From a phage: a stretch of DNA of 64,000 nt. The position numbers and the translations under genes are program-made. The stretch is taken from sequence record PZ295659.1, one strand, 5' to 3'. Of the stretch, positions 3,467-61,667 are shown in pieces. Each line of letters starts with the position of its first letter. Position 1 is the stretch's first letter. Under the pieces are notes generated by a model. It was not told the origin of the DNA. It ran no database searches and was given only the letters and a program-made list of their open reading frames with translations.

Positions 3467-3467
3467 A

Positions 3468-5513: not shown

Positions 5514-5855
5514 TTAAAAGAATTTAAATTTTTTCTTGGTCCGTTCATTAAAAGCTTGTTGTACTTGCATTGTAACACATTTTTCAACATGTGGTGCAAG
5601 TTCTGCTTTTCTGTCCTGGTCAAGAACTGCAAAGTCCATTACGATTTTACCATCAACCCAGTCTAGTTTTGTAATATAGACTATATGATGAGAACCATCT
5701 TCAAGCGTAATCAGAATCTCTTGAATGACATTTTCCATTGCTGAACGGATAATTTTAAGAGATTCATTAAACACTCGTTCTTTGCGAATGTCTTCCCCTT
5801 CCGAAGAAGGGGATTCATCAACGATTTCTAGATTTAAATCATCGAGATTATTCAT
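5514..5855 (-). CDS. 40: gp40 head vertex assembly chaperone
   Basis: Syntenic small ORF between uvsX and 41; track ORF starts at a TTG, ATG at 5855 preferred. Confidence 0.6.
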   Translation of the reverse strand: MNNLDDLNLEIVDESPSSEGEDIRKERVFNESLKIIRSAMENVIQEILITLEDGSHHIVYITKLDWVDGKIVMDFAVLDQDRKAELAPHVEKCVTMQVQQAFNERTKKKFKFF

Positions 5856-7020
5856 CGAAATCTTCCATTTCGTCAAGGTCGTTTTCTATATCTGCTGCAG
5901 ACGGAGCATCAGAAGTTTTAACCGGAACTTTAGTTGTTGCTTTGCAATTAATAAGGTCGTTAACAGCGTCATCAACTTCTTTAATAGAAGAGATAGCACC
6001 TAGTTTATATTTAGTTTCAATTGCATCTCGGAAAGGTTTGTGTTTAAACAACGGTCCCCAGAATTCTACACAATCAGTAGCTTTAGCACGCCATGATTTT
6101 TCTTCACGAATCATTTCACCTGTTTCTTCGTCAAGGAATTCACGAGCATACCAACCAGCTTTAGGCTTAACTACAAAACCAATTTCAGTTGCCATTTCTA
6201 ACAAGCCACTGAATGGGTCAATACCACCATCAAAATTAACTGTGATCGGAAAAGTAGATTTCTCTTTAACCGTACGAGATTTTTCTGCTTTCAACGTGAA
6301 GTCATAACCGGTCAATTCTGTACCTTCTTTAACCTGACGTTTAGAGATAAAGAATACAGTGTTAGCAGAGTAAAGAATACCTGTACCACCACCCATAATC
6401 TCTTTAGGATACAATCCGCCAATTTCCATTGCGGTATGGTTAATTGCAACACACGGAATATCTTTAATAGTCAGATACGGGGTCACAATGCGGAACAGAG
6501 ATTTAAGTGCCTTAGCACGAGACATATCACCTACAACTTTCTCGTTCAATGCATCTTCGGTTTCTTTCTTAGATGCAGTATTACCGATTGAATCGATAAA
6601 GATAATAACTTTATCACCGCGTTCAATCGCGTCAAGCTGATTAGTCATATCAACTTTAAGTTGTTCGACAGATTGAATCGGAGTATGAACTACACGGTCT
6701 AAATCAACACCCATTGAACGAAAATAAGATTCTGAAGCACCAAATTCTGAATCATAGAACAAACAAATTGCATCTTTATATTTCTTCATATATGCTGCAA
6801 CCATGGTCAGACCAAACAACGTTTTAAAGTGTTTAGAAGGAGCAGCAAAAATAGTTAAGCCTGATTGCAACCCGGCATTCAGTGCACCACCTAATGCAAT
6901 ATTCAACATCGGAATACGAGTAGGGACTTCATCACGATTATTAAACAGCTTAGACTTAGTCAAGTCTGCAGTCATTTTAGAAGTAGAAGCTTTAATCAGA
7001 CGAGATTTTAAATCAGACAT
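5848..7020 (-). CDS. uvsX: UvsX RecA-like recombinase
   Basis: 390 aa, MSDLKSRLIKASTSK... RecA fold motifs, colinear with T4 UvsX. Confidence 0.95.
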   Translation of the reverse strand: MSDLKSRLIKASTSKMTADLTKSKLFNNRDEVPTRIPMLNIALGGALNAGLQSGLTIFAAPSKHFKTLFGLTMVAAYMKKYKDAICLFYDSEFGASESYFRSMGVDLDRVVHTPIQSVEQLKVDMTNQLDAIERGDKVIIFIDSIGNTASKKETEDALNEKVVGDMSRAKALKSLFRIVTPYLTIKDIPCVAINHTAMEIGGLYPKEIMGGGTGILYSANTVFFISKRQVKEGTELTGYDFTLKAEKSRTVKEKSTFPITVNFDGGIDPFSGLLEMATEIGFVVKPKAGWYAREFLDEETGEMIREEKSWRAKATDCVEFWGPLFKHKPFRDAIETKYKLGAISSIKEVDDAVNDLINCKATTKVPVKTSDAPSAADIENDLDEMEDFDE

Positions 7021-7120: not shown

Positions 7121-7669
7121 TTAACGAGCCCATTTGATAATTTCTGTAATCAAATTATTACGTTCGCTTGCATTAAATCCTATAACTTTGTTAGCACCAT
7201 CATGATTAAGTAATTGATACGTTTGGATTTCGTTATGAATTGCAAACTCTTCAAAATATGAAATGACTGTATTAAAACCGAACGAAGACAAAGTAATAAG
7301 GTCGTCTTCAAAACTTTCAGTCATTTCGTTACGTGTTAAAATAATTGTGAACACATCATGGTTTTGGCAAAGACGAACATAATCCTGTTCATAAACGTCA
7401 AGAACCGAGTCCGCATCTTGTCGAATACGTCCATAAACCCAGTTACTAATATATCCACGGTCTAACAGATAAATCTTAGTAGGGTCTAAATAATTCAACA
7501 TCGTTTCGAAACAGCCAACTTCATTTCGAGACTTAACATCGAAACGTCCATCAACTGTTCGTTTAGGGAAATCAATCTTTACATATCTTTCGCTAATTTC
7601 CATTATGTCATTAATGAAAGTTGTTTTACCAGCATTATCCGGGCCATCTACTAAAATAATTTTAGCCAT
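7121..7669 (-). CDS. P-loop nucleoside-monophosphate-kinase-like protein (Tmk-like)
   Basis: 182 aa; Walker A ILVDGPDNAGKTT and LLDRGYIS (DRY-like) motif of thymidylate-kinase-type kinases. Confidence 0.6.
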   Translation of the reverse strand: MAKIILVDGPDNAGKTTFINDIMEISERYVKIDFPKRTVDGRFDVKSRNEVGCFETMLNYLDPTKIYLLDRGYISNWVYGRIRQDADSVLDVYEQDYVRLCQNHDVFTIILTRNEMTESFEDDLITLSSFGFNTVISYFEEFAIHNEIQTYQLLNHDGANKVIGFNASERNNLITEIIKWAR

Positions 7670-7670
7670 T

Positions 7671-8570
7671 TTATTCCTCGATTACGACATCTTCATATTT
7701 AGGTATATTATACGGCGAAGAAATTAAAGCATTAAAGTAGATGAACTCACCAAGACCTGGATGGAATACTTCTTCAGGATTTTCGAAATATTGAATCTTC
7801 GGTCGTCCTTTAAGAATTTGATAGTACTCAGTTTTAGTTGGGTTAAAAATTCGAATCAGCGCTTCTTCAGGATACTTATTTCTGTCGAAGCTATTATTTG
7901 GATCGGTTATATAAAGCGGTTGGCCTAATTGAATTGCACATTCAACCACTTGTTCAAAACGATAACACGGGTCACTAATTCGAAATGGATGAAAAATACC
8001 ATCTAGATGAATAGGAGCCAAATCACCTACAAGACGCTGCATGATGGAAGGACGTATAACTTTCTGCGTTACGATAATCTTATTACCATCTGCACCTGCG
8101 TTAACCAGCACTTCTTTTTGACGTTCATTCAACACAGTAGTTTGAAGTGAACGATTAACCGACAACATGTCGGTTTTTAAGAATTCGTCAATATAAAAAC
8201 GTGGTTTATTAGGGTCCGCAGTGATATTGAAATTGAATTCCACATCAAAAGCGCCGTCATATCCAGTGATATCTGTGATTAGAAAATCACAATCATAATA
8301 AGCAATTAATGAATCAACCACAAATTCATTTTCAGACCAGAAATATTTACGAGTGTTATATGCGTTATCTTTATACCATAATGGAACAAACTTAAATTCT
8401 GGGAAAAGACGTTCACATTCTTTAATATCAGATGCATTACGTGGATATGTAATCACATCACCCGGATTAGCACGGTGCAAATGAAGTTGGAAGTTGCCAT
8501 CCTTAAGGATAGCATACTGTCCAGTTTCATAAGACCGCATACTCAAGATAGGTACGCGGAAAATAGCCAT
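7671..8570 (-). CDS. hypothetical protein; candidate DNA glycosyl(arabinosyl)transferase
   Basis: 299-aa ORF at the position T4 uses for beta-gt, no clear T4 bgt similarity; HPGLGEF region faintly GT-B-like. Confidence 0.5.
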   Translation of the reverse strand: MAIFRVPILSMRSYETGQYAILKDGNFQLHLHRANPGDVITYPRNASDIKECERLFPEFKFVPLWYKDNAYNTRKYFWSENEFVVDSLIAYYDCDFLITDITGYDGAFDVEFNFNITADPNKPRFYIDEFLKTDMLSVNRSLQTTVLNERQKEVLVNAGADGNKIIVTQKVIRPSIMQRLVGDLAPIHLDGIFHPFRISDPCYRFEQVVECAIQLGQPLYITDPNNSFDRNKYPEEALIRIFNPTKTEYYQILKGRPKIQYFENPEEVFHPGLGEFIYFNALISSPYNIPKYEDVVIEE

Positions 8571-9286
8571 TAGTCAAGGAATCCTTTAACATAATCAAAA
8601 TCACGTTCAAACACATGGGCACTTACCATGGTATGAGTATAATCACCAACTTCTACACCACATTCGTTAGCGATATAATGAAGTAATTTTCCTTGGAGAT
8701 AAAAATCCAACTGCATAACAACAGCACAGTTCTGAGAACGCATATGACAGTGGGTATAAAGCTTACCATCACGAATATAATAAGTCACTGAGTCAGTACA
8801 TGGATATTCAAGTGTTTCGTCCGAATCAAGCAAAGCCTGATCTGAACTTTCTAGAATTTGGAACACAACTCTTCGGGAGTTAGGCTTCTCTTTAAGTTCT
8901 TTTAGAAGAGCTGGTAATTGAGCCGCAATGCGAGGACCGTAGAAAGTGTTGAAGTTTGCAGGCAAAGCGTCTGATTTAGGTTTAGAAATAAATTTAGCGA
9001 CATTAGGATATGCCTTAAATGCTTCTTCTGCATCAGTACCACCAGAAATCATAAACTTCCAGAAGTCTTCGGCATATTCATAAGAGATGCGATTAATACG
9101 TGGATCGGTCATTTTGAATGATGAAGGGGTATCAACAACTACTGTCATAGACCCAATTTCATTACAACGTCCAATACGAGAATCAGTAACGAACTGTGGA
9201 TTTTCTAAAATTTCACGATTAACAGCTTTAAATGCGGATTGAAAATCTGCGGCTTTAATATATTTCATTGTGTTATGTTTTCCCAT
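8570..9286 (-). CDS. 42: deoxypyrimidine (dCMP) hydroxymethylase, thymidylate-synthase family
   Basis: NSRRVV, catalytic YPCTDSVTYYIRDGKL, MRSQNCAVVMQLDFY, ECGVEVGDYTHTMVSAHVFERDF align with TS/gp42 core; Asp rather than TS Asn in the pyrimidine-recognition position. Confidence 0.75.
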   Translation of the reverse strand: MGKHNTMKYIKAADFQSAFKAVNREILENPQFVTDSRIGRCNEIGSMTVVVDTPSSFKMTDPRINRISYEYAEDFWKFMISGGTDAEEAFKAYPNVAKFISKPKSDALPANFNTFYGPRIAAQLPALLKELKEKPNSRRVVFQILESSDQALLDSDETLEYPCTDSVTYYIRDGKLYTHCHMRSQNCAVVMQLDFYLQGKLLHYIANECGVEVGDYTHTMVSAHVFERDFDYVKGFLD

Positions 9287-9406: not shown

Positions 9407-9568
9407 TCAGCGTAGTATTCTAGTTGAACAGGTTTCTTTAATCACTTTAGCCGCTTTAGTTTCAAACAGGCCCATAAGGGCCTTTTTAAGAATTTGTTCG
9501 TTGCTGTTAATTTTCGTAGTCAAAATCTCTTCATTAAGTTGGTGGTTAAAAGTTTTTCTAGAAATCAT
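9407..9568 (-). CDS. micro-ORF (53 aa) translationally coupled to upstream gene
   Basis: ATG overlaps stop of 386-aa gene (ATGA), GAGGT SD; MISRKTFNHQLNEEILTTKINSNEQILKKALMGLFETKAAKVIKETCSTRILR. Confidence 0.35.
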   Translation of the reverse strand: MISRKTFNHQLNEEILTTKINSNEQILKKALMGLFETKAAKVIKETCSTRILR

Positions 9569-10725
9569 TCCGGGTACCTCAAAGCGTCGTCAGAGTTAGT
9601 TATATCAATAATAGATATAGAGTTTTCTGCTAACCCATTTTTAGATAACTGACGTTTATAATATCTTTCACAATATGTACACGTCGTCCCGCAGATTTCA
9701 TTAGCACAATCGAAATCTGGATGTCTGAACCACCTTTTTTCTAAAAAGCCATCTAACAAAGAGGTTTCAATATTTACCGTATGTGAAAACTCGGTCTCAT
9801 TTTCAAGAGTGAAAATAGTCTCTAAAGGCTTCCACAATTCCAACAAATTACCTTCAAATTTTTCAGAAGCATAAGCTTCAAGAACTTTCAAAATGTAGTC
9901 TGTGCTACCTGTACGTCCTGAAACTTTGAATTGAGTGATACCAATATCATTATAAAGTTTCAAATCTTGAGGACGAACAAAACGAGTTCTCAACCAGTTA
10001 AATGGGTCTGTATCACGAGCTTTAATACAGTGTTGCATTGGATAGCCATTTAAGGATTTGGCATCATCTACTGTAACGTCGGTGCTATGGAAAATATAGC
10101 AAGAGTCACGATAGCTACAATGTGTTGTATACCCTTTACCAGCATTAGAACAGAACTCATTTACAAGAACTTCAAATATTATATTGTTCTTATTGCAAAA
10201 CTCTGCTGCACGCTTCAGGAAAGAAACTGAACGGTTCTTATGAATTCCACAGCAGACCTTTTTGATATTATATTGGTCATGCAAGTATTTGATTTGAGTT
10301 ACAGCATCGACATGTAGAATTGTTGAAACTTCAATCTCAATGTCTTTATTAACTTCACGAACAATTTCCATAACAACAGGGTTAGCGATAGTAATACGCC
10401 ATACGCCTATTGACCAAAGATACTGAACATAATCCTGAATAGCTTTCTTCTTCCACTCAACTAGTTCTCTTTTTGAACCAGGATTTATCGTGTTGAGTGT
10501 ATAGTTAAAGCAAATACCTAATTCGTTACAACGTTTAACATAATCTTCTAACATCTTTTTGTCAACGTCAGGAAGCCTAAAATCAGGTCTGGCTGCTACA
10601 AAAGCCATTTCTCTTGTAGAGCCGTATACTTCATTTATCAAGCTATTAGGATAAGTTTTATTGAGCTCTACGATTTTATCAAGAAGAGCTAAATCAAAAT
10701 TCGTTCCGATTTTAAAAGTATTCAT
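9565..10725 (-). CDS. Cys-rich enzyme of unknown function (U32-like layout, C-terminal CX4CX3CX2C cluster)
   Basis: 386 aa; N-terminal region resembles peptidase-U32-type TIM-barrel proteins; C-terminal CANEICGTTCTYC; several central Cys. Confidence 0.5.
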   Translation of the reverse strand: MNTFKIGTNFDLALLDKIVELNKTYPNSLINEVYGSTREMAFVAARPDFRLPDVDKKMLEDYVKRCNELGICFNYTLNTINPGSKRELVEWKKKAIQDYVQYLWSIGVWRITIANPVVMEIVREVNKDIEIEVSTILHVDAVTQIKYLHDQYNIKKVCCGIHKNRSVSFLKRAAEFCNKNNIIFEVLVNEFCSNAGKGYTTHCSYRDSCYIFHSTDVTVDDAKSLNGYPMQHCIKARDTDPFNWLRTRFVRPQDLKLYNDIGITQFKVSGRTGSTDYILKVLEAYASEKFEGNLLELWKPLETIFTLENETEFSHTVNIETSLLDGFLEKRWFRHPDFDCANEICGTTCTYCERYYKRQLSKNGLAENSISIIDITNSDDALRYPE

Positions 10726-10779: not shown

Positions 10780-11181
10780 TTATAGATTCGGTTTATATGA
10801 TTTAAATGTTTCGAATTCGCCTTTATTCATAAGAGCTTTGAATTCGTCAGGACGCATAGCTTTGTCGTCGATAATCCAATCATATACTGGTTTATGTGTT
10901 AGCAAATTATGGTACTTCAAGCCAATGTTTGCCAAGTTCTGAATCAGACTTGGGAGAATGTCAATTGCTATACGACCAGGACCTACTGACTTCATACCGC
11001 GAGCAGTGTAAAGCGTTATTGTATGCCCTGCATCATACAGGGCATTAATGGCAGACACCATTTCGACGTCTGGTTTGAAGTTCACGTAATCACGATTGTT
11101 ATTCCACTCGGTTATACAATCATCGACATCAAAACAAAGATTAAGCATGTTTTCTACACGGTGCATTAGATTCGTTCCCAT
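10780..11181 (-). CDS. HAD-superfamily phosphatase-like protein
   Basis: 133 aa; motif I FDVDDCIT, motif II LYTAR, motif IV IIDDK. Confidence 0.6.
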   Translation of the reverse strand: MGTNLMHRVENMLNLCFDVDDCITEWNNNRDYVNFKPDVEMVSAINALYDAGHTITLYTARGMKSVGPGRIAIDILPSLIQNLANIGLKYHNLLTHKPVYDWIIDDKAMRPDEFKALMNKGEFETFKSYKPNL

Positions 11182-12851
11182 TGATGAGTGATATCGCCAC
11201 CGATTGGACGATAGGAAACACCAGTTTCTTTATCAGTTAGTACCCATTTACCAGGATTTTTTGTAATCAGAGTAGCCGTTACAGGTTCTGCTACGTCATA
11301 ACTAATAGAGCCGTCTTGAAGTACACGGCCCATGTTACGTAATTGCTTAGTCAGAAGTTCCATACCTTTATAATATGCGGCTACCGCTTTAAGTGGATTA
11401 TTCTTGAAATAACCACCTAATGCAATCCAGATAATTGCTACAGCCAAATGATGATACTCGTTAAACGAACTCATCTTTCCATATTTGTAAACTAATGGAT
11501 TGATGTTAATAGTCACATTACAAGTTGTTTCATCAATAGTAAACTGACCCCAGGTCGGATTAGCGTTGAATTCATCATAACCTGAAACAGCGTAAAGCAC
11601 TTTAGCTTCATCATACAATTTTGGCCCGTAAATCTTGGTTTCACCAAAATATCCACGAGGGTCGATAAACTTGACTTCACCATTATCAGTAATCATAGTA
11701 TTACTGAAGTTCGGGTCACCATGAATAACAGAGTACTGTCCCTGAGAACGGTTATGATAACGAATAAGGTGTTCTAAAGCTTGTTTCAACATTGGCTTCA
11801 GACGTCCAATCTTAGTGTAGTTCACATGTGTGATTTTACCAAATGAATCAATCAATGGTTGAATACTTTCACAACGATCAATAACTTTCGTATAGAATTC
11901 TTTAGTGAAATCACGACGAACAGTTTCAGGACTTACAAAATAAGTGTCTGTGCTGAATTTCAGTGCATCTAAAATTGCATCAACAATTTGTGGACGAGCA
12001 AGACTCGATTTGGATTTAATATATTCAAATGCCGGCTTACCTTTAATGCGTTCCATTTCAAAGTTATTTTCATTAACAGAAACTAACTGAGGAACTGAAT
12101 CTGATTTCACTTTAAGATACCATGAAATCTCATCTTTCTGAAGAGCTCGACCCTGTTCGGTTAATGCGAATTTAGTTACAGTTTCTTCACCAATTTCAAC
12201 TGCATTAAAACTACGATTAAGTTCACGAACTTCATGAGCTTTTTCAAGTTTAGGCATATCACCTAAATCAATTAGATTCATAAGCTCTGATTTATTGAAT
12301 GCGCTGCCGTAAAGGAATTCTACGAAATCACGCCCTTTGCAGTATTCATGAATTTCCTCATCAGTAGAACCCATATAGAATTCCCAGTCTTTGAACTGAT
12401 AAATTCCTACAACATTACCACCTGTTGAACCTACGTTAGTGATATTTTCACCGTCGAAATTATATCGACATTCGTCACCCTTAACATAGATTGCGTTAAC
12501 ATTCCAAGACCATGAACCAAAATCAGGAATAATATCGCACCAGTTAACAATTACATTATGGCTGTCTAAATCTTTGTGTAATTTAGCAAGAGCATAAGCA
12601 GAACCATACGCTTCATCAACTGTACGAATAGTCACATTGAACCCTTCTTGCTCACAATAAGCTCGAACAGTTTCAGCAAATTTTGAATGAACTACTACAA
12701 TAATTTCATCTGCGCCAAGGTCAGAATAAATTGTATACAAATTGCTCAGAATAGTGTCTTGTTTATAGTTAACAAGCACCTTAGGAATATGATGCGTTAT
12801 TGGATACAAACGAGTTGCCAGTCCAGCACCAAGAATAACAGCTTTTTTCAT
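11166..12851 (-). CDS. bifunctional sugar-1-phosphate nucleotidyltransferase / APH-family anomeric sugar kinase
   Basis: 561 aa; N-terminal VILGAGLATRLYPIT (G-x-G-T-R-L NTase motif); C-terminal VIHGDPNFSN...KFIDPRG (Brenner motif and DxG of choline/aminoglycoside kinase fold). Confidence 0.8.
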   Translation of the reverse strand: MKKAVILGAGLATRLYPITHHIPKVLVNYKQDTILSNLYTIYSDLGADEIIVVVHSKFAETVRAYCEQEGFNVTIRTVDEAYGSAYALAKLHKDLDSHNVIVNWCDIIPDFGSWSWNVNAIYVKGDECRYNFDGENITNVGSTGGNVVGIYQFKDWEFYMGSTDEEIHEYCKGRDFVEFLYGSAFNKSELMNLIDLGDMPKLEKAHEVRELNRSFNAVEIGEETVTKFALTEQGRALQKDEISWYLKVKSDSVPQLVSVNENNFEMERIKGKPAFEYIKSKSSLARPQIVDAILDALKFSTDTYFVSPETVRRDFTKEFYTKVIDRCESIQPLIDSFGKITHVNYTKIGRLKPMLKQALEHLIRYHNRSQGQYSVIHGDPNFSNTMITDNGEVKFIDPRGYFGETKIYGPKLYDEAKVLYAVSGYDEFNANPTWGQFTIDETTCNVTININPLVYKYGKMSSFNEYHHLAVAIIWIALGGYFKNNPLKAVAAYYKGMELLTKQLRNMGRVLQDGSISYDVAEPVTATLITKNPGKWVLTDKETGVSYRPIGGDITHQWERI

Positions 12852-12892: not shown

Positions 12893-13036
12893 CTAGTTAA
12901 AGCATTCATACTTTGCTTGTAGTCCAATCATAATCCATCCGATTACAAGTGTTGGAATCATTACTGGAGCCGTTAAGCTCCAGTAGATAGTCATGACAAG
13001 CATCAATAGTAAAAGTCCTATTGTTATTGCTTTCAT
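12893..13036 (-). CDS. micro-ORF encoding 47-aa hydrophobic peptide
   Basis: ATG overlaps stop of SIS gene (ATGA); MKAITIGLLLLMLVMTIYWSLTAPVMIPTLVIGWIMIGLQAKYECFN; followed by GAGGA SD of NTase/kinase gene. Confidence 0.4.
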   Translation of the reverse strand: MKAITIGLLLLMLVMTIYWSLTAPVMIPTLVIGWIMIGLQAKYECFN

Positions 13037-13668
13037 TGTTCGCCTCGTAACATGGCACCTAGTGCACCGCCAGGGTGGAACTTAAGGAAGTCATTAGAGG
13101 TAAATCCACGTTCAGACGAAAGGTTGATAGCAAACGTATCGATAAGCGCTAACAACAATGTAGTGGACATGGTCGGAGCCAGAGAATTCTCATCAACCTC
13201 TACTGCGATGCCTGTACAGAACGTATAATCAAAAAGAGCTTCATATTCTTGTGGAATGTCTGGGTTACAATGCAACAGAATCTGTTTGACGTTCGGACGA
13301 ATCATTTTAAGATGCTTAGCCACGCCTATCATTTCTTCAGTTTTACCAGAACGACTAATATGAATCAACACATCATTAGGCGCAATGAATCCTGCATCAC
13401 CGTGAGAATAATGCCCGGTGTTCAAGTACATACTAGGGATACCGAGTGAAGCAAATGTTTCAGAAGCTTTAGTTGCAATATTAGCATTCTTACCAACACC
13501 TGTAATAATTACTCGGCTTTCATAATTACTAAGCCCTGGGCGTCGAAGAGTTTCTAGAATAGCATTATAACGAGCAGGGTTTTGACTAATTACTTTGGCC
13601 ATAGCGGCCAAAGAAGAAGCTTGTTTTATGATTGCGTCAATAGCGATAGTAATAGGAGTAGTTTTCAT
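13033..13668 (-). CDS. D-arabinose-5-phosphate isomerase (KdsD/GutQ-like, SIS domain only)
   Basis: 211 aa; IITGVGKNANIATKASETFASLGIPSMYLNTGHYSHGDAG parallels KdsD GMGKSGHIG.K.AATFASTGTPSFF.HPGEASHGDLG. Confidence 0.8.
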   Translation of the reverse strand: MKTTPITIAIDAIIKQASSLAAMAKVISQNPARYNAILETLRRPGLSNYESRVIITGVGKNANIATKASETFASLGIPSMYLNTGHYSHGDAGFIAPNDVLIHISRSGKTEEMIGVAKHLKMIRPNVKQILLHCNPDIPQEYEALFDYTFCTGIAVEVDENSLAPTMSTTLLLALIDTFAINLSSERGFTSNDFLKFHPGGALGAMLRGEQ

Positions 13669-18475: not shown

Positions 18476-19162
18476 TTAGAAGTCGTGAGTAGAATCAGCT
18501 TCCATCGCAATAACATAACTTACTTGAGAGCTTTCAAACTTAGCTGCAACTTTATCACCAGCTCCCCACAACATTACTTTATAGTTACCTGGCTGGATTT
18601 TCATATTAGCCATATTGATTACGAAGTTAAAGTTATTAGAACCATCATAATCGGTAAGAGTCAAAGAATACTTAGGACGGGTTAGTCTAGAATCTTCAAC
18701 TTTATTATAGCCATTGATAACAATTTTACCATCTTTATTTGTAATAGCAATTGTATCAATCTGAAGACCACGTGAAACTCGAAGCAATTGTTGAAGGTCT
18801 TCAGCTTTAATTTCAGTAATCACAGAAGCCACTGGGAATTGAATTGGCTTATTAGGAAAAACAATGGTGCTCTTGTCAGCGGCAGGCCAATAAACCGTGG
18901 AACGTGTATCTGCAATTTTAATATTGCCATCAGTGTGCATTGAAATTTCAGCATCATCAGACACTAGACTCAAAATGCTTAAGAAGCTATTCAAATCATA
19001 AAGTGCTACGTCAAAATCAATTTCATCAGAGATATTTGCTTCTGCATAAGTGGTGCCATTAACTGCACGAGTCATAATAAATTTACCTTGACTCAGCAGA
19101 ATGCCGGAGTTAATAGAGGCAAAGTTTTTCAGAATAGCGATAGTATCTTTAGACAGTTTCAT
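18476..19162 (-). CDS. 45: sliding clamp gp45
   Basis: MKLSKDTIAILKNFASINSGI... matches T4 gp45; start at second Met of track ORF. Confidence 0.9.
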   Translation of the reverse strand: MKLSKDTIAILKNFASINSGILLSQGKFIMTRAVNGTTYAEANISDEIDFDVALYDLNSFLSILSLVSDDAEISMHTDGNIKIADTRSTVYWPAADKSTIVFPNKPIQFPVASVITEIKAEDLQQLLRVSRGLQIDTIAITNKDGKIVINGYNKVEDSRLTRPKYSLTLTDYDGSNNFNFVINMANMKIQPGNYKVMLWGAGDKVAAKFESSQVSYVIAMEADSTHDF

Positions 19163-19202
19163 TTTATTTCCTTTCAAGACAATTCAAAGTTTAACAAATT
19201 TA

Positions 19203-19619
19203 TTATGCAGCAGCCATTTGCTTTTTAATAGCTTCAGGCAGTGATTCAATATATTCTGGAATTTTAGAAGCAACAATTTCGCCAGCTGCAATTAGTTGTT
19301 CGTCGGCATCAACACAGTAGAAATCTTCCAGACGCTCAGAACCATCTTTATCAAGAACGATTTTTCCGCCGGCTTCAATAGAATCTTTATAGTGCTTACG
19401 CATCAGATGAATCCACATATCAGATACATCGTTATCAATAAAACCATAAATCATAAAACGAGTTTCTTGTGGCAAAGATTGGAGTTTTTTAGCACTTGCG
19501 TCATCACAATGCAGGACCCATGCTTTACGAACACGATTATGGTTATGTGGGTTAGCGTCAGTACGGATAGAAGTAACTTTCAGATCAGCAGCAGTGAAAC
19601 CTTTAGCAGTAGTAAACAT
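19203..19619 (-). CDS. rpbA: RNA polymerase binding protein RpbA
   Basis: 138-aa ORF at the T4 rpbA position between 45 and 46. Confidence 0.7.
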   Translation of the reverse strand: MFTTAKGFTAADLKVTSIRTDANPHNHNRVRKAWVLHCDDASAKKLQSLPQETRFMIYGFIDNDVSDMWIHLMRKHYKDSIEAGGKIVLDKDGSERLEDFYCVDADEQLIAAGEIVASKIPEYIESLPEAIKKQMAAA

Positions 19620-19874: not shown

Positions 19875-21563
19875 TTATGAAACAGTCATTACAGTAAATC
19901 GTCCAACTTTGCTCATCTGAAGATGTTGTCCATAACGTTGAGGGTCATGGTCTCGATGAGAGATAATGAACACGTTAGTATTTTGTAAACTTCCAAGAAT
20001 GGTATCTATAGCCTTAACAGCCTCAGAATCGACAGCACCATCAAAAACCTCATCAAGAATCAGAGTGTTGATTTTAACACCAGAGACCTTTTCAGCAATA
20101 TCTCGCCATGTAAACAACAATGCGATATCGATACGTGCCTTTTCACCTTGACTAAATGAAGCATAACTGAAATCTTCACGGCCACGTGATTTTATAGATT
20201 CATTGAATTCTTCGTCAATAGAAAACACGTAATCAGCTTCCATGATTTTAAGATAATAGTTAATCTGCTTGTTGAACAGAGGCACATATTTTTTAATGAT
20301 AGCACCTTTAATACCAGAATCTTTTAACATATCTGTGATAATACCACGATGGTATTTTTCAAGAACGATATCCGATTTTGTTTTAATGATTTTATCAAGT
20401 TCTTTTTGAAGCAAAGCTATCTCATCGGCATGGTCGATAAATTCCGCCGAGGCTTGTTCTATTGCAGCTTTAACTTTCTTAGCTTTATCAATAGTGGCAA
20501 TCATTGCTTGTTTCTTGGTACGAATATCAGATGCAAGGTCCTGTTTAGTCTTAACATTAGCTCTATATTCGTCCACTAGGACACTCAGATTATCTCTGTG
20601 ACATGTAAGTTGCTCGAATGAGTGATTACATTCATGAAGCTTATCGGTAATCTTAGAGACAATAGGGTCACCCTGGTGCAACTGTGACGCACAAGTAGGA
20701 CATGTGCCACCGTCATGATACATCTTAATAACTTTGTTATATGAGTCGATTTTAGATTTAATCAAGAATGCTTCTTGTCCGATCTTGTTGAATGCCTCAG
20801 TAGGGTCTTCATCAAGAACGATATTAAGTAGTCGCTCATTAGCTTCTTCGATTTCTGCTTTTAATGAACGAGCTTCTTTGGCTAGGTCGTCATACATATT
20901 CTGTAGACGCGCTACATTATCACCAGATAATTTCTTTTGACGTTCGATATTCTCGTTATAAATCTTAATTTGTTGGATAATACCATCTTTCTTGGCATCG
21001 AGAACTTGTCCCTGGGAATTAAGTTCTCGAACTTGAGACTTATTGATTTTATCCATTTCAGCGAGTGTGCCGACTTCTAAAAGGTCTTCGACAAGTTTTC
21101 TACGAGCAGGGGTGCTAAGAGCCATGAAAGGGGTATACCCTGCCGTCCCAAGCACAACGATTTGTTTAAAAGACGCGTATGACATTCCGATGCTACGTTC
21201 AAATTCTTCTTGGAAGTCACGACTGCTGGCAGATTCATCAAGACGAACACCGTCAACGGAGATTTCGAAAATATTGGGCTTTTGGCCACGTTTAATGAAG
21301 TATTTTTTACCATCGAATTCCATCCAAAGCTCAACTAAGAGCTCTTTCTTGTTCGTGCTATTAATGATTTGCCCTTTCTTAACATCACGAAATGGTTTAC
21401 CGAAAAGTCCGAAAGTAATGGCTTCTAACATCGTAGATTTACCACCGCCGTTTTTACCAGTGATTAATGTCTTTTGGACTTTATCTAATTGGATGTCAAT
21501 AGGATTCCCACCTACCGACATGATGTTTTGATAACGAACACGATTTAATTTAAATGATTTCAT
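19875..21563 (-). CDS. 46: recombination endonuclease subunit gp46 (Rad50/SbcC-like)
   Basis: 562 aa, Walker A GKNGGGKST, coiled-coil middle, signature and D-loop; colinear with T4 gp46. Confidence 0.95.
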   Translation of the reverse strand: MKSFKLNRVRYQNIMSVGGNPIDIQLDKVQKTLITGKNGGGKSTMLEAITFGLFGKPFRDVKKGQIINSTNKKELLVELWMEFDGKKYFIKRGQKPNIFEISVDGVRLDESASSRDFQEEFERSIGMSYASFKQIVVLGTAGYTPFMALSTPARRKLVEDLLEVGTLAEMDKINKSQVRELNSQGQVLDAKKDGIIQQIKIYNENIERQKKLSGDNVARLQNMYDDLAKEARSLKAEIEEANERLLNIVLDEDPTEAFNKIGQEAFLIKSKIDSYNKVIKMYHDGGTCPTCASQLHQGDPIVSKITDKLHECNHSFEQLTCHRDNLSVLVDEYRANVKTKQDLASDIRTKKQAMIATIDKAKKVKAAIEQASAEFIDHADEIALLQKELDKIIKTKSDIVLEKYHRGIITDMLKDSGIKGAIIKKYVPLFNKQINYYLKIMEADYVFSIDEEFNESIKSRGREDFSYASFSQGEKARIDIALLFTWRDIAEKVSGVKINTLILDEVFDGAVDSEAVKAIDTILGSLQNTNVFIISHRDHDPQRYGQHLQMSKVGRFTVMTVS

Positions 21564-21814
21564 ATGTATTCTCTTCGAATGAAGTCCTCTACATATTTTA
21601 ACATGTTATCTCTATCAGCAAAATATTCATCTAGTTCTGCATACATAACAACACCTGGTGCGTACTCACAGGTAACATACATTGTTCCAAAGAAACGAGG
21701 AGTTGATTCCTCGTAATTCTCGGTCCATTCAACGATACCAATATAACCGTCACCAATACTAAATTCATGACGATGGATTTCATAATCAGTCTTCGTCATT
21801 ATACGCGTCCTCAA
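21560..21814 (-). CDS. hypothetical protein (46.1 position)
   Basis: 84-aa ORF overlapping stops/starts with neighbours. Confidence 0.5.
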   Translation of the reverse strand: MRTRIMTKTDYEIHRHEFSIGDGYIGIVEWTENYEESTPRFFGTMYVTCEYAPGVVMYAELDEYFADRDNMLKYVEDFIRREYI

Positions 21815-22043
21815 TACACGCTTCAGCCATTTTAAGAATAGAGCCAGGAGTATCGTTGTCCATTATATTAAAGCTAAATTCAATAGCCCAGTCTGTGCAG
21901 ACATGAACTGCTTTAACTTCATTGCCTTCAACGCGTAATGGCTCAATCCAATACTTGATAGTGTTCTCGAATCCATCATCATCTTTAACGTCCATTTCAA
22001 CTTCAAGCCCAAGCCCAGCATTGTTAAATTCATCTAAAGTCAT
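21786..22043 (-). CDS. hypothetical protein (46.2 position)
   Basis: 85-aa ORF. Confidence 0.5.
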   Translation of the reverse strand: MTLDEFNNAGLGLEVEMDVKDDDGFENTIKYWIEPLRVEGNEVKAVHVCTDWAIEFSFNIMDNDTPGSILKMAEACIEDAYNDED

Positions 22044-23059
22044 TGTGTTGCCTCAATATAAAGTTCATTGGAATATTTGACCAGCGCTTCTCTTTCTTCG
22101 TCTGAGATATCTGGAATCGCGTCAATATATTCTTTAATGATATCTTGAAGTGATTTAATCTCGATTTCCTGGTCATCATCAGATTCAACACTGTTATCAA
22201 CTTTAGAAACCATACGAAGAGAGTGAACTACTTTTTCAAGTTCAGATTCAAACTTAGTCAACTCTGAATCAATTTCTGATACTATAACACGTACGGCTAG
22301 ATTAGTATAATCAGAATAATTGATTTTGCCTTTAAACGGATAAGTGATTCGTCGATGCCATGTTGTTTCATTAGGAATAAATTCCATACGTTCAACATCA
22401 GTGTCAAATACCCAGAATCCGCGCGGGTCGTTCTCATCGCCTGCAGTAAGGGTCCATGGTGTCCCAATATATTTAACGTTAGCAGCTTCAGAGATTGTGT
22501 GGAAGTGGCCAGACCAGACTTGTTTATAGGTCTTTAAGAAATCAGGTTCAAGCCCATGAGACTTCATTCCTTTATAGAAATAAAAGCCATTCAGTTCCCA
22601 GTGACCAACACAATACGCCGCAGAAGAAGTCTTGATGTGCTCTAAGATTTCACCTGTATTTTCTTCACACATCCATGGAACGATATCAATAAGACATCCG
22701 TCAAAATCTACAGTAGTTGGATGTTCGTAAATAGTAAAGTTTTCAAATTGAGTTAACAATTCAGAAACAGTGTTAGGTGTTATTGTATTCTTAAACGCCA
22801 TGTCATGATTTCCTATCGTGACATGAACGTGAATGCCTGCTTTAGAAATCATATCAACGATTTCACGATTGAATTCCATTGTACGATGTGTTATTGCTTT
22901 ACGGACGTCAAACCAATCACCGTACTGAATCCAAGTTTTAATCCCGTGTTTCTTAGAGTATTCAATTGCTTGACGAATACCATCACGTTGAATATCTTGA
23001 ACCCATGGGTCGTCTTGTTTGACTCCGATATGGAAGTCGCCTAAGTGCAAAATTTTCAT
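22040..23059 (-). CDS. 47: recombination endonuclease subunit gp47 (Mre11/SbcD-like)
   Basis: 339 aa, phosphoesterase motifs GDFH, GNHD, GHFH; colinear with T4 gp47. Confidence 0.95.
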   Translation of the reverse strand: MKILHLGDFHIGVKQDDPWVQDIQRDGIRQAIEYSKKHGIKTWIQYGDWFDVRKAITHRTMEFNREIVDMISKAGIHVHVTIGNHDMAFKNTITPNTVSELLTQFENFTIYEHPTTVDFDGCLIDIVPWMCEENTGEILEHIKTSSAAYCVGHWELNGFYFYKGMKSHGLEPDFLKTYKQVWSGHFHTISEAANVKYIGTPWTLTAGDENDPRGFWVFDTDVERMEFIPNETTWHRRITYPFKGKINYSDYTNLAVRVIVSEIDSELTKFESELEKVVHSLRMVSKVDNSVESDDDQEIEIKSLQDIIKEYIDAIPDISDEEREALVKYSNELYIEATQ

Positions 23060-23100
23060 ATTATTTCCTCATTAGTTAATTCATTCTATCATCCGTTTAT

Positions 23101-23132
23101 AAAGCAAAAAAAAAGGAACTCCGAAGAGTTCC
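23101..23132 (-). terminator. rho-independent terminator
   Basis: Minus strand GGAACUC-UUCG-GAGUUCC followed by U9. Confidence 0.6.
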
Positions 23133-23290
23133 TATCCACATAGTACACCGTACAGAGGCTCACGGTTCGATTTGAACTTGATCGGCCTACGGGTAATAGT
23201 ACCTTCTGCTTTAGCTTTTTCATATGATGCGTTAAAACGCTTAATCATATTAGTTTTGCTTTCTCTAATCTTGTTGAAATCGATGTCCAT
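23132..23290 (-). CDS. small ORF (52 aa) ending in the terminator
   Basis: AAGGA SD, MDIDFNKIRESKTNMIKRFNASYEKAKAEGTITRRPIKFKSNREPLYGVLCG; below track length cutoff. Confidence 0.35.
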   Translation of the reverse strand: MDIDFNKIRESKTNMIKRFNASYEKAKAEGTITRRPIKFKSNREPLYGVLCG

Positions 23291-23344
23291 AGGAGTCCTT
23301 AGAAATCTGGATGTTCGTCATTCATTAACCAGCGGTCCATGTTA

Positions 23345-23560
23345 TCACCGTTGCCACCATTTTTTAAGTTGATGTGAATCTACCCACACCTTCGCTACAG
23401 GTTCAATCTGAAAAATACCATCAGACGTACGTCCAATCATTTTGTATTCGGTCTCAGATTGTTTGACACAAATATCACCGTAAGAGCGAAGTCTAAAAGC
23501 GGCTCCTACTAGAAGCCGTTTAAATGGTTTATTTACTAGCGCCATTAATGATGTCCTCAA
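23345..23560 (-). CDS. hypothetical protein
   Basis: 71-aa ORF. Confidence 0.45.
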   Translation of the reverse strand: MRTSLMALVNKPFKRLLVGAAFRLRSYGDICVKQSETEYKMIGRTSDGIFQIEPVAKVWVDSHQLKKWWQR

Positions 23561-23852
23561 TAGCCTGACGAGTAGTAACCCACTGAATTTTAATCAATTC
23601 GTCAGTGTAGGGTTGACGCAGAATATCACGAGATTTTTTAATAGCGTATTCGTAAGCTTCGAAGTTATTTTGAATTGCAGCTTCTTGCGCGTGAGCATAA
23701 AGACGATTAAGTTCGCTACGATTCTTTTTAAGAATCTTTTCGGCTTTCTTAACCGCTTCTGCTTCATTTTTCTTTTGAATTTCTTGTAGCATTTTAGCTA
23801 CTTTATCTTCGGCTTCTTTGTTTTCAGCTCTTTCAATAATCTCAGTATTCAT
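23529..23852 (-). CDS. hypothetical helical protein
   Basis: 107-aa ORF, Lys/Glu/Ala rich. Confidence 0.45.
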   Translation of the reverse strand: MNTEIIERAENKEAEDKVAKMLQEIQKKNEAEAVKKAEKILKKNRSELNRLYAHAQEAAIQNNFEAYEYAIKKSRDILRQPYTDELIKIQWVTTRQAIEDIINGASK

Positions 23853-23853
23853 A

Positions 23854-24147
23854 TTATCTCATTAAATTAAAATAAAAACGTCCGTCCTCTTCAATACAGA
23901 ACTCATACTCAACCGGAGTCCCATTTATCGAAAATGACACGTCATGTGGGTTCAAAGGGTCGATGTCAAAATTAATTTTAAATTCTCGACCCAACAGTTT
24001 TACCAAATAAGGGATTGCTTCGTCAAAAGGTTCTTCTAAGTAGTTAGAGATGTCAATTGTCATCCTCATATAAAAAATCCAAACTAGGCGAATCGCTAAC
24101 AACTTCCTTCTTTTCAGCCCCAGGAGCTTTATAAGCGGATTCTTCAT
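23854..24147 (-). CDS. hypothetical protein (start uncertain, overlaps 3' end of gene 55 in track)
   Basis: 97-aa track ORF; internal Met (MRMTIDIS) more likely start. Confidence 0.4.
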
Positions 24148-24610
24148 AATGCGTCATTTTATCGTAGATGTCTTGAATAAACGTTTCATCTACCAACGCT
24201 ACCATATCATCGTCATGACTGTCGTAGACATTATGAACGAAGTAACTATATTTCTTTGCAACTTCCTTACGTTCTTTTTTGATACGTTGGACAAAAGCAT
24301 TAAAACAAGCTCGAGTTATGTATGCATGTGGGTTATTGTACTTAGTTTCGTCGAAATTATGAAGTCCCTTAATAGAGGCTTCAATCCCATCTGCAATCAT
24401 CTCCTGCTTCCAAGACTGGGTATATCCTGAAAAGTTGAAACGTTTGGACAGGCCTTCGGCGATAAGCATAATTGCTAAACCGATGGTATCATTCTGACGA
24501 ATAATTTTGTTTGGGTCTTTATTATTTAAGAGCTCCTTTTTCCACTCGATTATAGCGGCGAGAAGCTCTTTATTATTCACATAGTTATTTTTAGGTTTTT
24601 GTTCAGTCAT
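24053..24610 (-). CDS. 55: late-transcription sigma factor gp55
   Basis: 185 aa; ...[27 protein letters not shown]...[31 protein letters not shown] colinear with T4 gp55. Confidence 0.95.
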
Positions 24611-24682
24611 AAGTACCTCTTAGCTCAATTCATAGGTCTATTATATCATAATATTTAGAGACCTATCTTAAAGCACGAGATA

Positions 24683-24952
24683 CTATCGGAGCAAACAATA
24701 AGCCTGAAACACTTTTTCCATTAAACGTTTGAACTCATGGATATCGATATAAAGCTCAGTAAGACCGGCATTATAAAGAAAATCTAAAAAGTTCTCATGT
24801 GTTTCATTATAGTCGCCTTCGTTTAATTGAGATACATGAGTTTCCCAAAAACCAACACCTTTAACAAATGGAAAATACGTGACTTTCATGTATTCGTCAA
24901 CATAAAATTCGCCCAGCTTTTCTTCAGTTATACTGATTCGAGTTAATTTCAT
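24683..24952 (-). CDS. hypothetical protein
   Basis: 89-aa ORF. Confidence 0.45.
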   Translation of the reverse strand: MKLTRISITEEKLGEFYVDEYMKVTYFPFVKGVGFWETHVSQLNEGDYNETHENFLDFLYNAGLTELYIDIHEFKRLMEKVFQAYCLLR

Positions 24953-25176
24953 TCTAGTTCCTTTGCTGCTTCAAGAGCAGCATCCAGCGAATCAAATTGG
25001 TCAACGAAATCAATATTCAACGCATCGTCAACCGTAGCATATAACCACCATTGTTTGAATTCATATTCTAGGATAAATCCAGGACCTTCAATCTGAGGAA
25101 GACCTAGGCTATTTGTACCAACTTCGTAACCAGCTAGACGCAGGTCGTTAATCAAAGTTTCTGTTAATACGCTCAT
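24949..25176 (-). CDS. hypothetical acidic protein
   Basis: 75-aa ORF. Confidence 0.45.
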   Translation of the reverse strand: MSVLTETLINDLRLAGYEVGTNSLGLPQIEGPGFILEYEFKQWWLYATVDDALNIDFVDQFDSLDAALEAAKELE

Positions 25177-25505
25177 TTTACCGCCTTAACAATTTTCAGG
25201 TCAACGAATTTTTTCTTACGTTGATTTTTCATACGACGGATAGTCTTTTCAGAGATTTCATGTTTCTGATAAGCTTTAGATTCAACACCAAATGCAGCAA
25301 CGTCAAATTCAGAAAGAATATATTGTACTAGAATTTCACGAATAGAATTACGTCCAATTTTCTGGTCGTGTTTTTGCATGATTTCATAAAGACGGAATTC
25401 CCACGCGTCAAGAACTTGAGGAGTAACAATATTGCCGGATTCCAGAAGAGCAACAACTTTATCGAAAGCGAAAGAATTAACTACGTTTTTGATTTTAGTA
25501 GACAT
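25173..25505 (-). CDS. hypothetical protein
   Basis: 110-aa ORF; preceded by promoter repeat 25536-25570. Confidence 0.5.
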   Translation of the reverse strand: MSTKIKNVVNSFAFDKVVALLESGNIVTPQVLDAWEFRLYEIMQKHDQKIGRNSIREILVQYILSEFDVAAFGVESKAYQKHEISEKTIRRMKNQRKKKFVDLKIVKAVK

Positions 25506-40879: not shown

Positions 40880-40970
40880 TACAGTTTCCTCGCTAACCAT
40901 GAAAAGAATAAACCAATTAAAACAGGTCCTACAGCCATTGTTAACCAAGCCCAAGGTTCAAGATAATAAA

Positions 40971-60932: not shown

Positions 60933-61667
60933 TTACCTTAAGATTTTTTCAATTTTAGAATAAAGCTCTTCTAAAGAGCCGTCGTTTGTAATAACTAAGT
61001 CGCCTTCTTCAATAGGCAACCCAGCTTCTGTAATATGTTTATCAGTGGATTCAGTACCAGAGCGAACCACATGAATAACTGTAGCACCCATCGCTCTAGC
61101 GGTTTCCATTTCATGGACTTGGCGTGTATCGGTCACAACGTAGTAATCGAAATCACTTCCAATATAATCCATATAGTTTAATGCAAAAAGCTTAACCCAA
61201 TACATACGGTCAAATAAATTAACGACAACATCCGTACCGAGGGCTTGCATAAGACGGCGGATTGACCACGTGTCGTTGATATTATTTATAGCTTCACGCA
61301 GGGCTTCATACGGTTTAATATCTAGATATGAATATCCACCTTCTAGTGATGATAATACGTTAACACCATTAATTGGCAGGTATTGTCGCTGTAAATAAAT
61401 TAGCGTTTCTTCCATTAATTCAATAACATCCAATTTATTGAGATTTAATGGTGTTTCACGGTCGTATCCAATGCCTTCAAAGTATTCATATTTCAACTCG
61501 GTGAATACATCAGGGTTTTCGGCATGTTTACGCTCCCAAGCTATTGCTAGAGCGTCTTTAATTGGATATGCTAATTGATATTTTATGGATTTAAAGTTTG
61601 AATTGATGTAATCAGCAGTAGTGTCTTTACCACTACGTTTGATGCCGCTTAAAAAGATTAGCTCCAT
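60933..61667 (-). CDS. 1: deoxynucleoside monophosphate kinase gp1
   Basis: MELIFLSGIKRSGKDTTADYINS...DRMYWVKLFALNY...AMGATVIHVVR colinear with T4 gp1. Confidence 0.95.
   Translation of the reverse strand: MELIFLSGIKRSGKDTTADYINSNFKSIKYQLAYPIKDALAIAWERKHAENPDVFTELKYEYFEGIGYDRETPLNLNKLDVIELMEETLIYLQRQYLPINGVNVLSSLEGGYSYLDIKPYEALREAINNINDTWSIRRLMQALGTDVVVNLFDRMYWVKLFALNYMDYIGSDFDYYVVTDTRQVHEMETARAMGATVIHVVRSGTESTDKHITEAGLPIEEGDLVITNDGSLEELYSKIEKILR

Follow-up and report, generated by a model that had tools for sequence, protein, structure and literature searches.

The closest known relatives of the DNA modification genes considered here are those of the phages RB69, DLP3 and HY126, whose chemistry and enzymology have been reported (PMC13326640 sections 23-27). 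The virion DNA of RB69 contains arabinosyl-5-hydroxy-deoxycytidine (PMC13326640 section 23). Experimentally, RB69 gp48 makes 5-hydroxy-dCMP (5hodCMP; PMC13326640), and this nucleotide is phosphorylated by RB69 gp159 (PMC13326640 section 24). Work by He et al. 2026 (doi 10.1038/s41589-026-02150-z) and Mahler et al. 2025 (doi 10.1016/j.chom.2025.06.005) is cited in the same source. The arabinosyl-5-hydroxycytosine system is already known and published (Thomas 2018; Mahler 2025; He 2026; Lee 2026).

We analyzed a window of 64,000 nucleotides of phage DNA (PZ295659.1). Its best genome matches were Mosigvirus genomes (97-98% identity), and its replication proteins were mostly 99-100% identical to those of RB69. 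Judged by these similarities, the source of the window is a Mosigvirus, an RB69-like T-even phage. The closest relative with a complete genome was S143_2 (168,769 bp, 98% identity). The window amounts to ~38% of the genome (roughly 169 kb), and our statements on absence outside the window are based on this 98%-identical relative and on published RB69 work. Gene order differs from that of T4 in places; imm and imm.1, for example, are relocated. The genes of the two slots and of the arabinose pathway, the dNMP kinase gene and the elements between gene 47 and a-gt.2 lie on the minus strand. Our reading, to which we assign a probability of about 0.9, is that the DNA of this Mosigvirus carries arabinosylated 5-hydroxycytosine and not glucosylated 5-hydroxymethylcytosine, and that T4 Agt and Bgt are neither needed nor present. 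The T4-type glucosyltransferases would be absent because the DNA is decorated with arabinose on 5-hydroxycytosine. The initial annotation had proposed that the glucose-based modification of T4 was replaced by a different sugar system, and this is borne out by a full arabinose gene set together with the lack of Agt, Bgt and ba-gt; the base has changed as well.

The identity of the base was approached through the gene at the gene-42 position (8570..9286), which encodes a thymidylate-synthase-family enzyme (Pfam Thymidylat_synt) with 99.2% identity to RB69 gp48. It had been called simply 42, and its position and family agree with that name, but identity to T4 gp42 reaches only 25%, and the protein bears the signature of a 5-hydroxy-dCMP synthase. 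It has RSQN where T4 has RSND, which is a D169N-type signature, and Cys163 and Asp194 are conserved. A D169N-type signature together with an Asp at the N177 position, as expected of a ThyA-family 5hodCMP synthase, was present. From these residues and the identity to RB69 gp48 we predict that the gene-42 homologue acts as a 5-hydroxy-dCMP synthase and, therefore, that the sugar would be carried on 5-hydroxycytosine and not on hydroxymethylcytosine. Several public records give the 5hodCMP synthase the plain name "thymidylate synthase". Arabinose on hydroxymethylcytosine (arabosyl-5-hydroxymethylcytosine), with the gene-42 homologue acting as a dCMP hydroxymethylase, was the original assignment for RB69 in 2018 (Thomas et al., PMC6024577), and a thymidylate-synthase-family protein at the gene-42 position would suit it. 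Nevertheless, the base was identified as 5-hydroxycytosine by an MS/MS base fragment of m/z 128.05, by NMR, by labelling with 18O2 and by expressing RB69 gp48 in vivo (PMC13326640 sections 23-24), and the protein in the window has the D169N-type signature and resembles RB69 gp48 far more than T4 gp42. We regard the hydroxymethylcytosine assignment as very improbable for this phage.

Genes for the synthesis of an arabinose nucleotide lie between the gene-42 homologue and gene 43 in an intact cluster whose domains were confirmed. They are accompanied by a gene for a Peptidase-U32-family protein, the homologue of RB69 gp50 (9565..10725; Pfam Peptidase_U32 E 6e-11; 99.2% identity). A HAD-like phosphatase (10780..11181) is homologous to HY126 AfhF and 99.2% identical to RB69 gp51; it has no Pfam match, and the function assigned to it follows PMC13326640 section 27. 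The bifunctional sugar-1-phosphate nucleotidyltransferase and kinase (11166..12851), homologous to RB69 gp52:53 and HY126 AfhE, showed an NTP_transferase domain at residues 3-100, weak kinase-family matches at 308-409 and 99% identity to RB69 gp52+gp53. The arabinose-5-phosphate isomerase (13033..13668; Pfam SIS domain E 2e-10) is 99% identical to RB69 gp55 and is annotated as API in HX01, S143_2 and RB69. The window thus holds the isomerase, the bifunctional kinase/nucleotidyltransferase and the HAD phosphatase that together mark a UDP-arabinofuranose pathway. At 60933..61667 lies the gene for the dNMP kinase gp1, homologous to RB69 gp159 and collinear with S143_2 77458-78192, which is annotated as deoxynucleotide monophosphate kinase.

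Based on these genes, the following pathway may be proposed. The gene-42 homologue would hydroxylate dCMP to 5-hydroxy-dCMP, a reaction demonstrated with the RB69 protein, which is 99% identical. Gp1 and host kinases would then convert this product to the triphosphate, which the polymerase would incorporate. The isomerase, the bifunctional enzyme and the HAD phosphatase would lead from ribulose-5-phosphate to UDP-arabinofuranose, steps that were shown for the HY126 homologues and that we infer here. The first arabinose would be added by a 299-aa GT-B enzyme encoded exactly at the T4 bgt position, and a second glycosyltransferase of the RB69 gp3 type would add the second arabinose. No gene for this second enzyme was found in the window; in relatives it lies ~12.7 kb upstream of the window start, and in S143_2 it is found at 2523-3620 with 99% identity.

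The bgt slot is bounded by uvsX (5848..7020), whose product is 100% identical to RB69 UvsX and 68% identical to T4 UvsX. Two genes were found between uvsX and the gene-42 homologue. One (7121..7669) encodes a thymidylate-kinase-like nucleotide kinase of 182 aa, homologous to RB69 gp45 (98.9% identity; phrog_761 thymidylate kinase E 5e-45; no Pfam match). The other (7671..8570) adjoins the synthase gene and encodes a GT-B-fold glycosyltransferase of 299 aa that equals RB69 gp46:47. The earlier statement that no bgt is present in this interval holds for Bgt-family genes, but the interval is not empty, being occupied by the kinase-like and GT-B genes. The 299-aa protein has two Rossmann-like domains and structural similarity to solved GT-B enzymes. 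It matched no Pfam family at E<=0.01, glycosyltransferase models such as Glycos_transf_1 included, and a profile search of PDB sequences gave nothing meaningful; all of its homologues (138/138) were unannotated and without Pfam domains. The possibility that it is a diverged Bgt or Agt was rejected, with hhalign probabilities of 0.1-2.6% in profile-sequence and profile-profile comparisons; its family scored 0.2% against the Bgt family. Even the Agt and Bgt families matched each other at only 6.6%, and therefore sequence profiles cannot link these GT-B enzymes; the fold alone does so. For this reason we call the 299-aa enzyme a positional and functional analogue and not a member of the Bgt or Agt family. 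The bgt locus is a positional replacement by a different GT-B glycosyltransferase, and not a gap. The enzyme is a candidate first arabinosyltransferase by analogy with RB69 gp46:47, for which this role has been proposed in print. Single purified glycosyltransferases of the related phage DLP3 were inactive on 5hoC DNA (PMC13326640 section 26), and the same study could not distinguish placement of the first sugar onto the mononucleotide from placement onto DNA (PMC13326640). Several public records carry a wrong label for this glycosyltransferase, either "RNA polymerase binding protein" or just "hypothetical".

Searches for glucosyltransferases were carried out at the level of sequence and of family profiles. 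The check suggested by the initial annotation, tblastn of T4 Agt and Bgt, was run on the window and on the complete S143_2 genome and recovered no homologue, in agreement with what had been expected. Against the window, the best values were E 0.53 for Agt and E 1.6 for Bgt. Searches with Agt, Bgt and the T2-type ba-gt (RB27 copy) gave nothing at E<=1 in the complete S143_2 genome, the window or RB69 1-45 kb. The positive controls, T4 for Agt and Bgt and RB27 for ba-gt, were recovered in the same searches, and the RB27 control was the sole ba-gt match. Family HMMs, based on 92 homologues of Agt and 42 of Bgt, were searched against 2,795 six-frame ORFs. The T4 controls scored E 8e-160 (Agt) and E 5e-155 (Bgt), and the best non-control values were E 2 and E 0.5, respectively. 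No member of the AGT family (PF11440) or the BGT family (PF09198) was found in the window by sequence match or profile. As for other candidate transferases, Pfam searches of three larger Mosigvirus-specific ORFs, at 33888-34820, 51657-52613 and 50593-51279, returned only DUF families or nothing. Relocation of agt or bgt to a site beyond the 64-kb window might be entertained, since the window is only about 38% of the genome and T4 gene order is not fully kept, as the moved imm and imm.1 illustrate. Against this, complete S143_2 (98% identity) yielded no tblastn match to Agt, Bgt or ba-gt at E<=1 and no HMM match better than E 0.7, and BlastP detected no glucosyltransferase gene (agt or bgt) in RB69 (PMC6024577 section 3.2), which also lacks both according to PMC13326640 section 21. 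A relocated gene is, in our judgment, extremely unlikely.

In the agt slot, the boundaries are gene 47 (22040..23059), encoding an Mre11/SbcD-like nuclease subunit of 339 aa (75.5% identity to T4 gp47, 99.7% to RB69 gp47; Pfam Metallophos), and gene 55 (24053..24610), encoding the late sigma factor (91% to T4 gp55, 99.5% to RB69 gp55). Every gene of this interval is on the minus strand, and only four small genes lie within it. The gene for the 52-aa a-gt.2 homologue (23132..23290) is followed by those for homologues of a-gt.3 (23345..23545; 66 aa from an ATG whose position was checked), a-gt.4 (23529..23852; 107 aa) and a-gt.5 (23854..24069; 71 aa), the last of which overlaps the end of gene 55. 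Identities to the T4 proteins were 65% for a-gt.2 (E 3e-20; Pfam DUF5486 E 3.5e-24; phrog_2140), 46% for a-gt.3 (E 4e-14; phrog_1648), 60% for a-gt.4 (E 3e-33; Pfam DUF2654 E 1e-28) and 47% for a-gt.5 (E 1e-14; Pfam DUF5491), and a-gt.5 was 100% identical to its RB69 counterpart. PHROGs placed all four in families of unknown function. In T4, a-gt.2 to a-gt.5 sit between mobB and gene 55, and these genes are common to glucosylating and arabinosylating phages. The initial annotation had described a 52-aa ORF with a terminator and three small hypotheticals here; the count is correct, but the 52-aa ORF is the a-gt.2 homologue and the hypotheticals are homologues of T4 a-gt.3, a-gt.4 and a-gt.5. 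The slot has received no replacement for a-gt, and a-gt.2 to a-gt.5 are conserved T4 genes.

Counterparts of T4 47.1, a-gt and mobB are absent from the 47-55 interval of the window. The spacer between gene 47 and a-gt.2 totals 72 nt and contains, in place of an a-gt gene, a terminator and a promoter-like element alone. A remnant of a-gt in this spacer was ruled out, as the terminator, the promoter-like element and a ribosome-binding site fill it. The terminator-like hairpin (23106..23133; AGGAACTCTTCGGAGTTCCT) has an 8-bp stem with 4 G-C pairs and a UUCG loop, followed by T8, and the a-gt.2 stop codon extends into it. RB69 carries the same hairpin and T-run, and shorter versions follow T4 a-gt.2 and T4 a-gt. 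The element at 23083..23108, as read directly from the sequence, consists of TTTGCTTTA, 11 nt and TAGAAT. Guided by the T4 middle-promoter consensus, we tentatively assign it as a MotA-type middle promoter serving gene 47. Both GCTTTATA and TAnAAT were kept in 4/4 aligned junctions. In T4 and Mineola, a-gt is present between a-gt.2 and gene 47, and the layout in another genus is a-gt.2, a-gt, terminator, 47. In the present phage the run from a-gt.5 to a-gt.2 ends in the terminator with gene 47 directly after it; a-gt, which other genera have between a-gt.2 and the terminator, is missing. Among the 40 relatives listed, alignments to window positions 21500-25500 spanned about 4.0 kb, which is the query length, so that all 40 are free of an insertion where 47 meets a-gt.2. 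That agt is missing from this genome alone, through a recent deletion or as an artefact of assembly, and that its absence is no lineage trait, is scarcely credible. In favour of this alternative, the two hairpin and GCTTTATA copies flanking the T4 mobB/a-gt cassette could mediate deletion, and the adjacent a-gt.2 to a-gt.4 patch is unusually divergent in this phage. Against it, the RB69 junction is almost base-for-base identical, the listed relatives share the same aligned span, and agt is unnecessary with an arabinose system.

The patch from a-gt.2 to a-gt.4 was only 58-88% identical to RB69 within flanks of 97-100%. No donor of the divergent a-gt.2/a-gt.3 allele was identified among 50,697 phage records, in which the best full-length match was 77%. 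T4 has two copies of the hairpin-terminator and MotA-box promoter element, one on either side of its mobB/a-gt cassette, and the present phage has one. We can speculate, with considerable doubt, that the agt slot is a recombination-prone module boundary at which sugar transferases are gained and lost and small genes exchanged through repeated regulatory elements, with a-gt.2 to a-gt.4 as fast-evolving accessory factors. If this were true, the proteins of a-gt.2 to a-gt.4 could be accessory, for example anti-defence, factors instead of housekeeping fillers.

Which restriction, CRISPR and type IV systems a phage evades, and which it triggers, depends on the hypermodification of its DNA. Knowing whether a therapeutic or environmental T-even-like phage carries arabosyl-5-hydroxycytosine or glucosyl-hmC predicts its sensitivity to defence, and arabosyl-5-hydroxycytosine status also predicts cloning and sequencing behaviour. 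For this window, such knowledge follows directly from what has been published on RB69 and related phages; its value is correct annotation, and no new question is opened.

Compared with T4 (gp42, Agt, Bgt), the window follows the same logic, in which a ThyA-family enzyme yields a C5-oxygenated dCMP and GT-B-fold enzymes then act with a UDP-sugar. The core backbone and the slots (uvsX to 42; 47 to 55) are the same and a-gt.2 to a-gt.5 are conserved, but the base and the sugar are both different. T2 and T6 have Agt and, at the bgt slot, a beta-alpha-glucosyltransferase, of which the window and S143_2 have no homologue; the uvsX-42 slot holds a lineage-variable transferase. The arabinosyl-5-hydroxycytosine system of RB69, HY126 (Afh genes) and Acinetobacter phage DLP3 shares with the window both its genes and their order from uvsX to gene 43: Tmk-like kinase, GT-B, ThyA-like 5hodCMP synthase, U32, HAD phosphatase, nucleotidyltransferase/kinase and arabinose-5-P isomerase. 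Relative to RB69, there are local differences in the a-gt.2 to a-gt.4 alleles, the second glycosyltransferase (RB69 gp3) falls outside the window, and the glycosyltransferase and the bifunctional enzyme are each encoded by one intact ORF, which is divided in two in the RB69 reference record. Both phages are without agt and bgt, their proteins are 99% identical, and there is no difference of substance between the two systems.

Our searches recovered no gene for the T4 DNA alpha- or beta-glucosyltransferase (Agt or Bgt) either at the syntenic gene 47-55 and uvsX-42 positions or elsewhere in the window, where T4 Agt and Bgt gave no tblastn match better than E 0.5. As a stand-in for the phage's own complete genome, the complete 168,769-bp genome of its closest relative, S143_2 (98% identity), was assembled. 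The check proposed in the initial annotation, a tblastn search for agt or bgt elsewhere in the genome, found neither in this relative: T4 Agt, T4 Bgt and the T2-type beta-alpha-glucosyltransferase (ba-gt) produced nothing at E<=1 against S143_2, the window or RB69 1-45 kb. The ba-gt query was the RB27 copy, and the RB27 control was recovered at 100%. Family HMMs representing 92 Agt and 42 Bgt homologues, down to ~27-30% identity, were also run on 2,795 six-frame ORFs from S143_2, the window, RB69 1-45 kb and a T4 control region. The T4 genes alone scored (E 8e-160 and 5e-155), and the remaining ORFs all had E values of at least 0.5. In the phage collection, Agt was present in 657 records and Bgt in 126; nearly all Agt matches from Escherichia and Shigella reached 90% identity or more, consistent with Tequatrovirus, and those of a Klebsiella-phage group were 60-80% identical. 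For RB69, Thomas et al. likewise reported that BlastP could identify neither a T4 a-gt or b-gt homologue nor one of T2 ba-gt (PMC6024577 section 3.2).

The genomic background was that of an RB69-like phage. Megablast of 21500-25500 and 1-25000 against 50,697 phage records returned ~150 matches that cover nearly the full query length and are 95-98% identical; every one is an RB69-like T-even phage of the genus Mosigvirus (e.g. S143_2, HX01, HY126 and APCEc01). UvsX, gp43, gp47, gp55 and the modification proteins share 99-100% identity with RB69. Every gene of the region lies on the minus strand, and GC content is 35-39% throughout. At 3969-3983, the window is missing ~416 bp present in S143_2, RB69 and HX01 that encode a 124-aa hypothetical protein (RB69 ORF041c). 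Segments without a megablast match to S143_2 (40705-41065, 56362-57486, 58273-58998 and 59818-60143) are variable among close Mosigvirus genomes. Outside the window, at 18582-19574 of the S143_2 locus L008, a gene adjoining cd carries the annotation phospho-2-dehydro-3-deoxyheptonate aldolase (DAHP-synthase-like).

Between gene 47 (22040-23059) and gene 55 (24053-24610), tblastn of T4 proteins identified only homologues of a-gt.2 (52 aa, 23132-23290, 65% identity), a-gt.3 (66 aa, 23345-23545, 46%), a-gt.4 (107 aa, 23529-23852, 60%) and a-gt.5 (71 aa, 23854-24069, 47%); their E values span 1e-14 to 3e-33. The 52-aa ORF with a terminator described initially is the a-gt.2 homologue, whose stop codon continues into the hairpin AGGAACTCTTCGGAGTTCCT and then eight further T. 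The "three small hypotheticals" were rightly counted but are identifiable, being the other three homologues. T4 places these four genes between mobB and gene 55, and RB69's own annotation already uses their names. Three of the four proteins are covered by Pfam DUF5486, DUF2654 and DUF5491, and PHROGs lists all four as of unknown function. These ORFs are conserved T4 genes with no relation to the sugar. The interval contains no counterpart of T4 47.1, a-gt or mobB, and a spacer of only 72 nt separates a-gt.2 from gene 47. Among the matches listed, 40 Mosigvirus relatives had aligned spans of ~4.0 kb to the 4.0-kb query, so none of these 40 carries an insertion at the 47/a-gt.2 junction.

Alignment of the junction in the window, RB69 and T4 revealed a single element common to the window (23083-23133) and RB69, consisting of a UUCG-loop hairpin, a T-run, GCTTTATA, ~11 nt, TAGAAT or TAAAAT, and the gene 47 ribosome-binding site. 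The pairing of GCTTTATA with TAnAAT resembles the consensus of T4 MotA-dependent middle promoters, and it is a putative promoter of this kind. T4 has an element of the same kind twice (16578-16636 and 18675-18742), one copy after a-gt.2 and before mobB and one after a-gt and before 47.1 and 47, so that the two copies flank the mobB/a-gt cassette. Such an element could possibly be a recombination substrate for a-gt gain or loss. The Klebsiella phage Mineola (Jiaodavirus) has a-gt immediately after a-gt.2 and the terminator after a-gt. Taken together, these layouts indicate that a-gt is a single-gene presence/absence polymorphism ending the 55 to a-gt.2 gene run, and the gene is cleanly absent, not decayed, in the window's lineage.

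The same run contains a divergent patch (23130-23900) spanning a-gt.2, a-gt.3 and most of a-gt.4, with 58-88% identity to RB69 per 100-nt bin and flanks of 97-100% on both sides. The megablast alignment to S143_2 is interrupted at 23240-23513, and for 23135-23560 the best full-length match in the 50,697 records, to VR5, Bp7 and similar phages, reached only 77% identity. The pattern suggests mosaic replacement by an allele absent from the collection.

The absence of bgt between uvsX (5848-7020) and the gene-42 homologue was borne out; however, the slot is occupied by two genes, the second encoding a different enzyme with a GT-B fold. The first encodes a 182-aa thymidylate-kinase-like protein (phrog_761, E 5e-45). 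The second (7671-8570) encodes a 299-aa protein that had no Pfam match and 138 database homologues, every one unannotated, from T4-like phages of Edwardsiella, Yersinia, Acinetobacter, Serratia, Providencia and Pseudomonas. A confident AlphaFold2 model (pLDDT 94.6, 46-sequence alignment) predicts a GT-B glycosyltransferase fold, and its top matches are those published for RB69 gp46:47 (PMC13326640 Table 1). Membership of the Agt or Bgt family was rejected at an hhalign probability of <3% to either, but the two families reach only 6.6% with each other, so the low score says little beyond non-membership. The protein is one intact ORF equivalent to RB69 gp46 plus gp47 (24597-25497, 99% identity), and the bifunctional nucleotidyltransferase/kinase (11166-12851) is likewise intact where the RB69 reference (28094-29780) splits it in two. 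The gp46/gp47 split has been stated to be a sequencing error, and the intact ORFs support this published view of the RB69 splits. The GT-B gene is annotated "RNA polymerase binding protein" in the HX01 RefSeq record (8100-8999) and "hypothetical" elsewhere (S143_2 locus L006, 7404-8303).

The gene initially called 42 (8570-9286) does belong to the thymidylate-synthase family, but it is not T4's 42. Its product has only 25% identity to T4 gp42 and 99.2% to RB69 gp48. Expression of RB69 gp48 in E. coli, together with flavin analysis and labelling with 18O2, showed that this protein makes 5-hydroxy-dCMP (5hodCMP) (PMC13326640 section 24). Alignment with T4 gp42 showed that the catalytic Cys and dCMP-selecting Asp are retained and that RSND is replaced by RSQN, which by this alignment corresponds to the "D169N" signature proposed as diagnostic of 5hodCMP synthases (PMC13326640 discussion). 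Public records label this synthase simply "thymidylate synthase".

Four genes lie between the gene-42 homologue and gene 43, encoding a U32-family protein, a HAD-like phosphatase, a 561-aa protein (N-terminal nucleotidyltransferase domain, kinase-like C-terminus) and a SIS-domain arabinose-5-phosphate isomerase, each 99% identical to RB69 gp50, gp51, gp52:53 and gp55, respectively. The T4 interval holds only imm and imm.1; in the window (2515-3193) and RB69, these lie between sp and 61.4, and the arabinose genes take the 42-43 interval. Public annotations of this cluster are misleading; the phosphatase is recorded as "phosphoheptose isomerase" (HX01, 11172-11573). The peptidase-U32-family gene (9565-10725) lies inside the modification cluster, and some U32-family proteins act in C5 hydroxylation of RNA pyrimidines. 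For this protein, PMC13326640 Table 1 suggests "sugar or heterocycle reductase" and nothing more on its role. The published pathway runs from ribulose-5-P through arabinose-5-P, arabinose-1,5-P2 and arabinose-1-P to UDP-arabinofuranose (UDP-Araf), and the 5-hydroxy-dC of RB69 DNA bears beta-D-Araf-(1-3)-alpha-D-Araf (PMC13326640 sections 23, 27). The proposed second transferase of RB69, gp3, has no homologue within the 64-kb window; one is found in S143_2 at 2523-3620 (99% identity), ~12.7 kb upstream of the window start.

Based on these observations, the interpretation that the glucose system has been replaced by a different sugar system is supported. Even in the literature, the 299-aa enzyme is a candidate for adding the first arabinose, at either the mononucleotide or the DNA stage. 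Papers on RB69 and related phages had already reached all of these conclusions (Thomas 2018; Lee et al. 2026, PMC13326640), with Mahler 2025 and He 2026 reporting likewise as cited in Lee et al., and the finding is therefore ordinary for Mosigvirus. In contrast to T4, both the base and the sugar are different in this phage.
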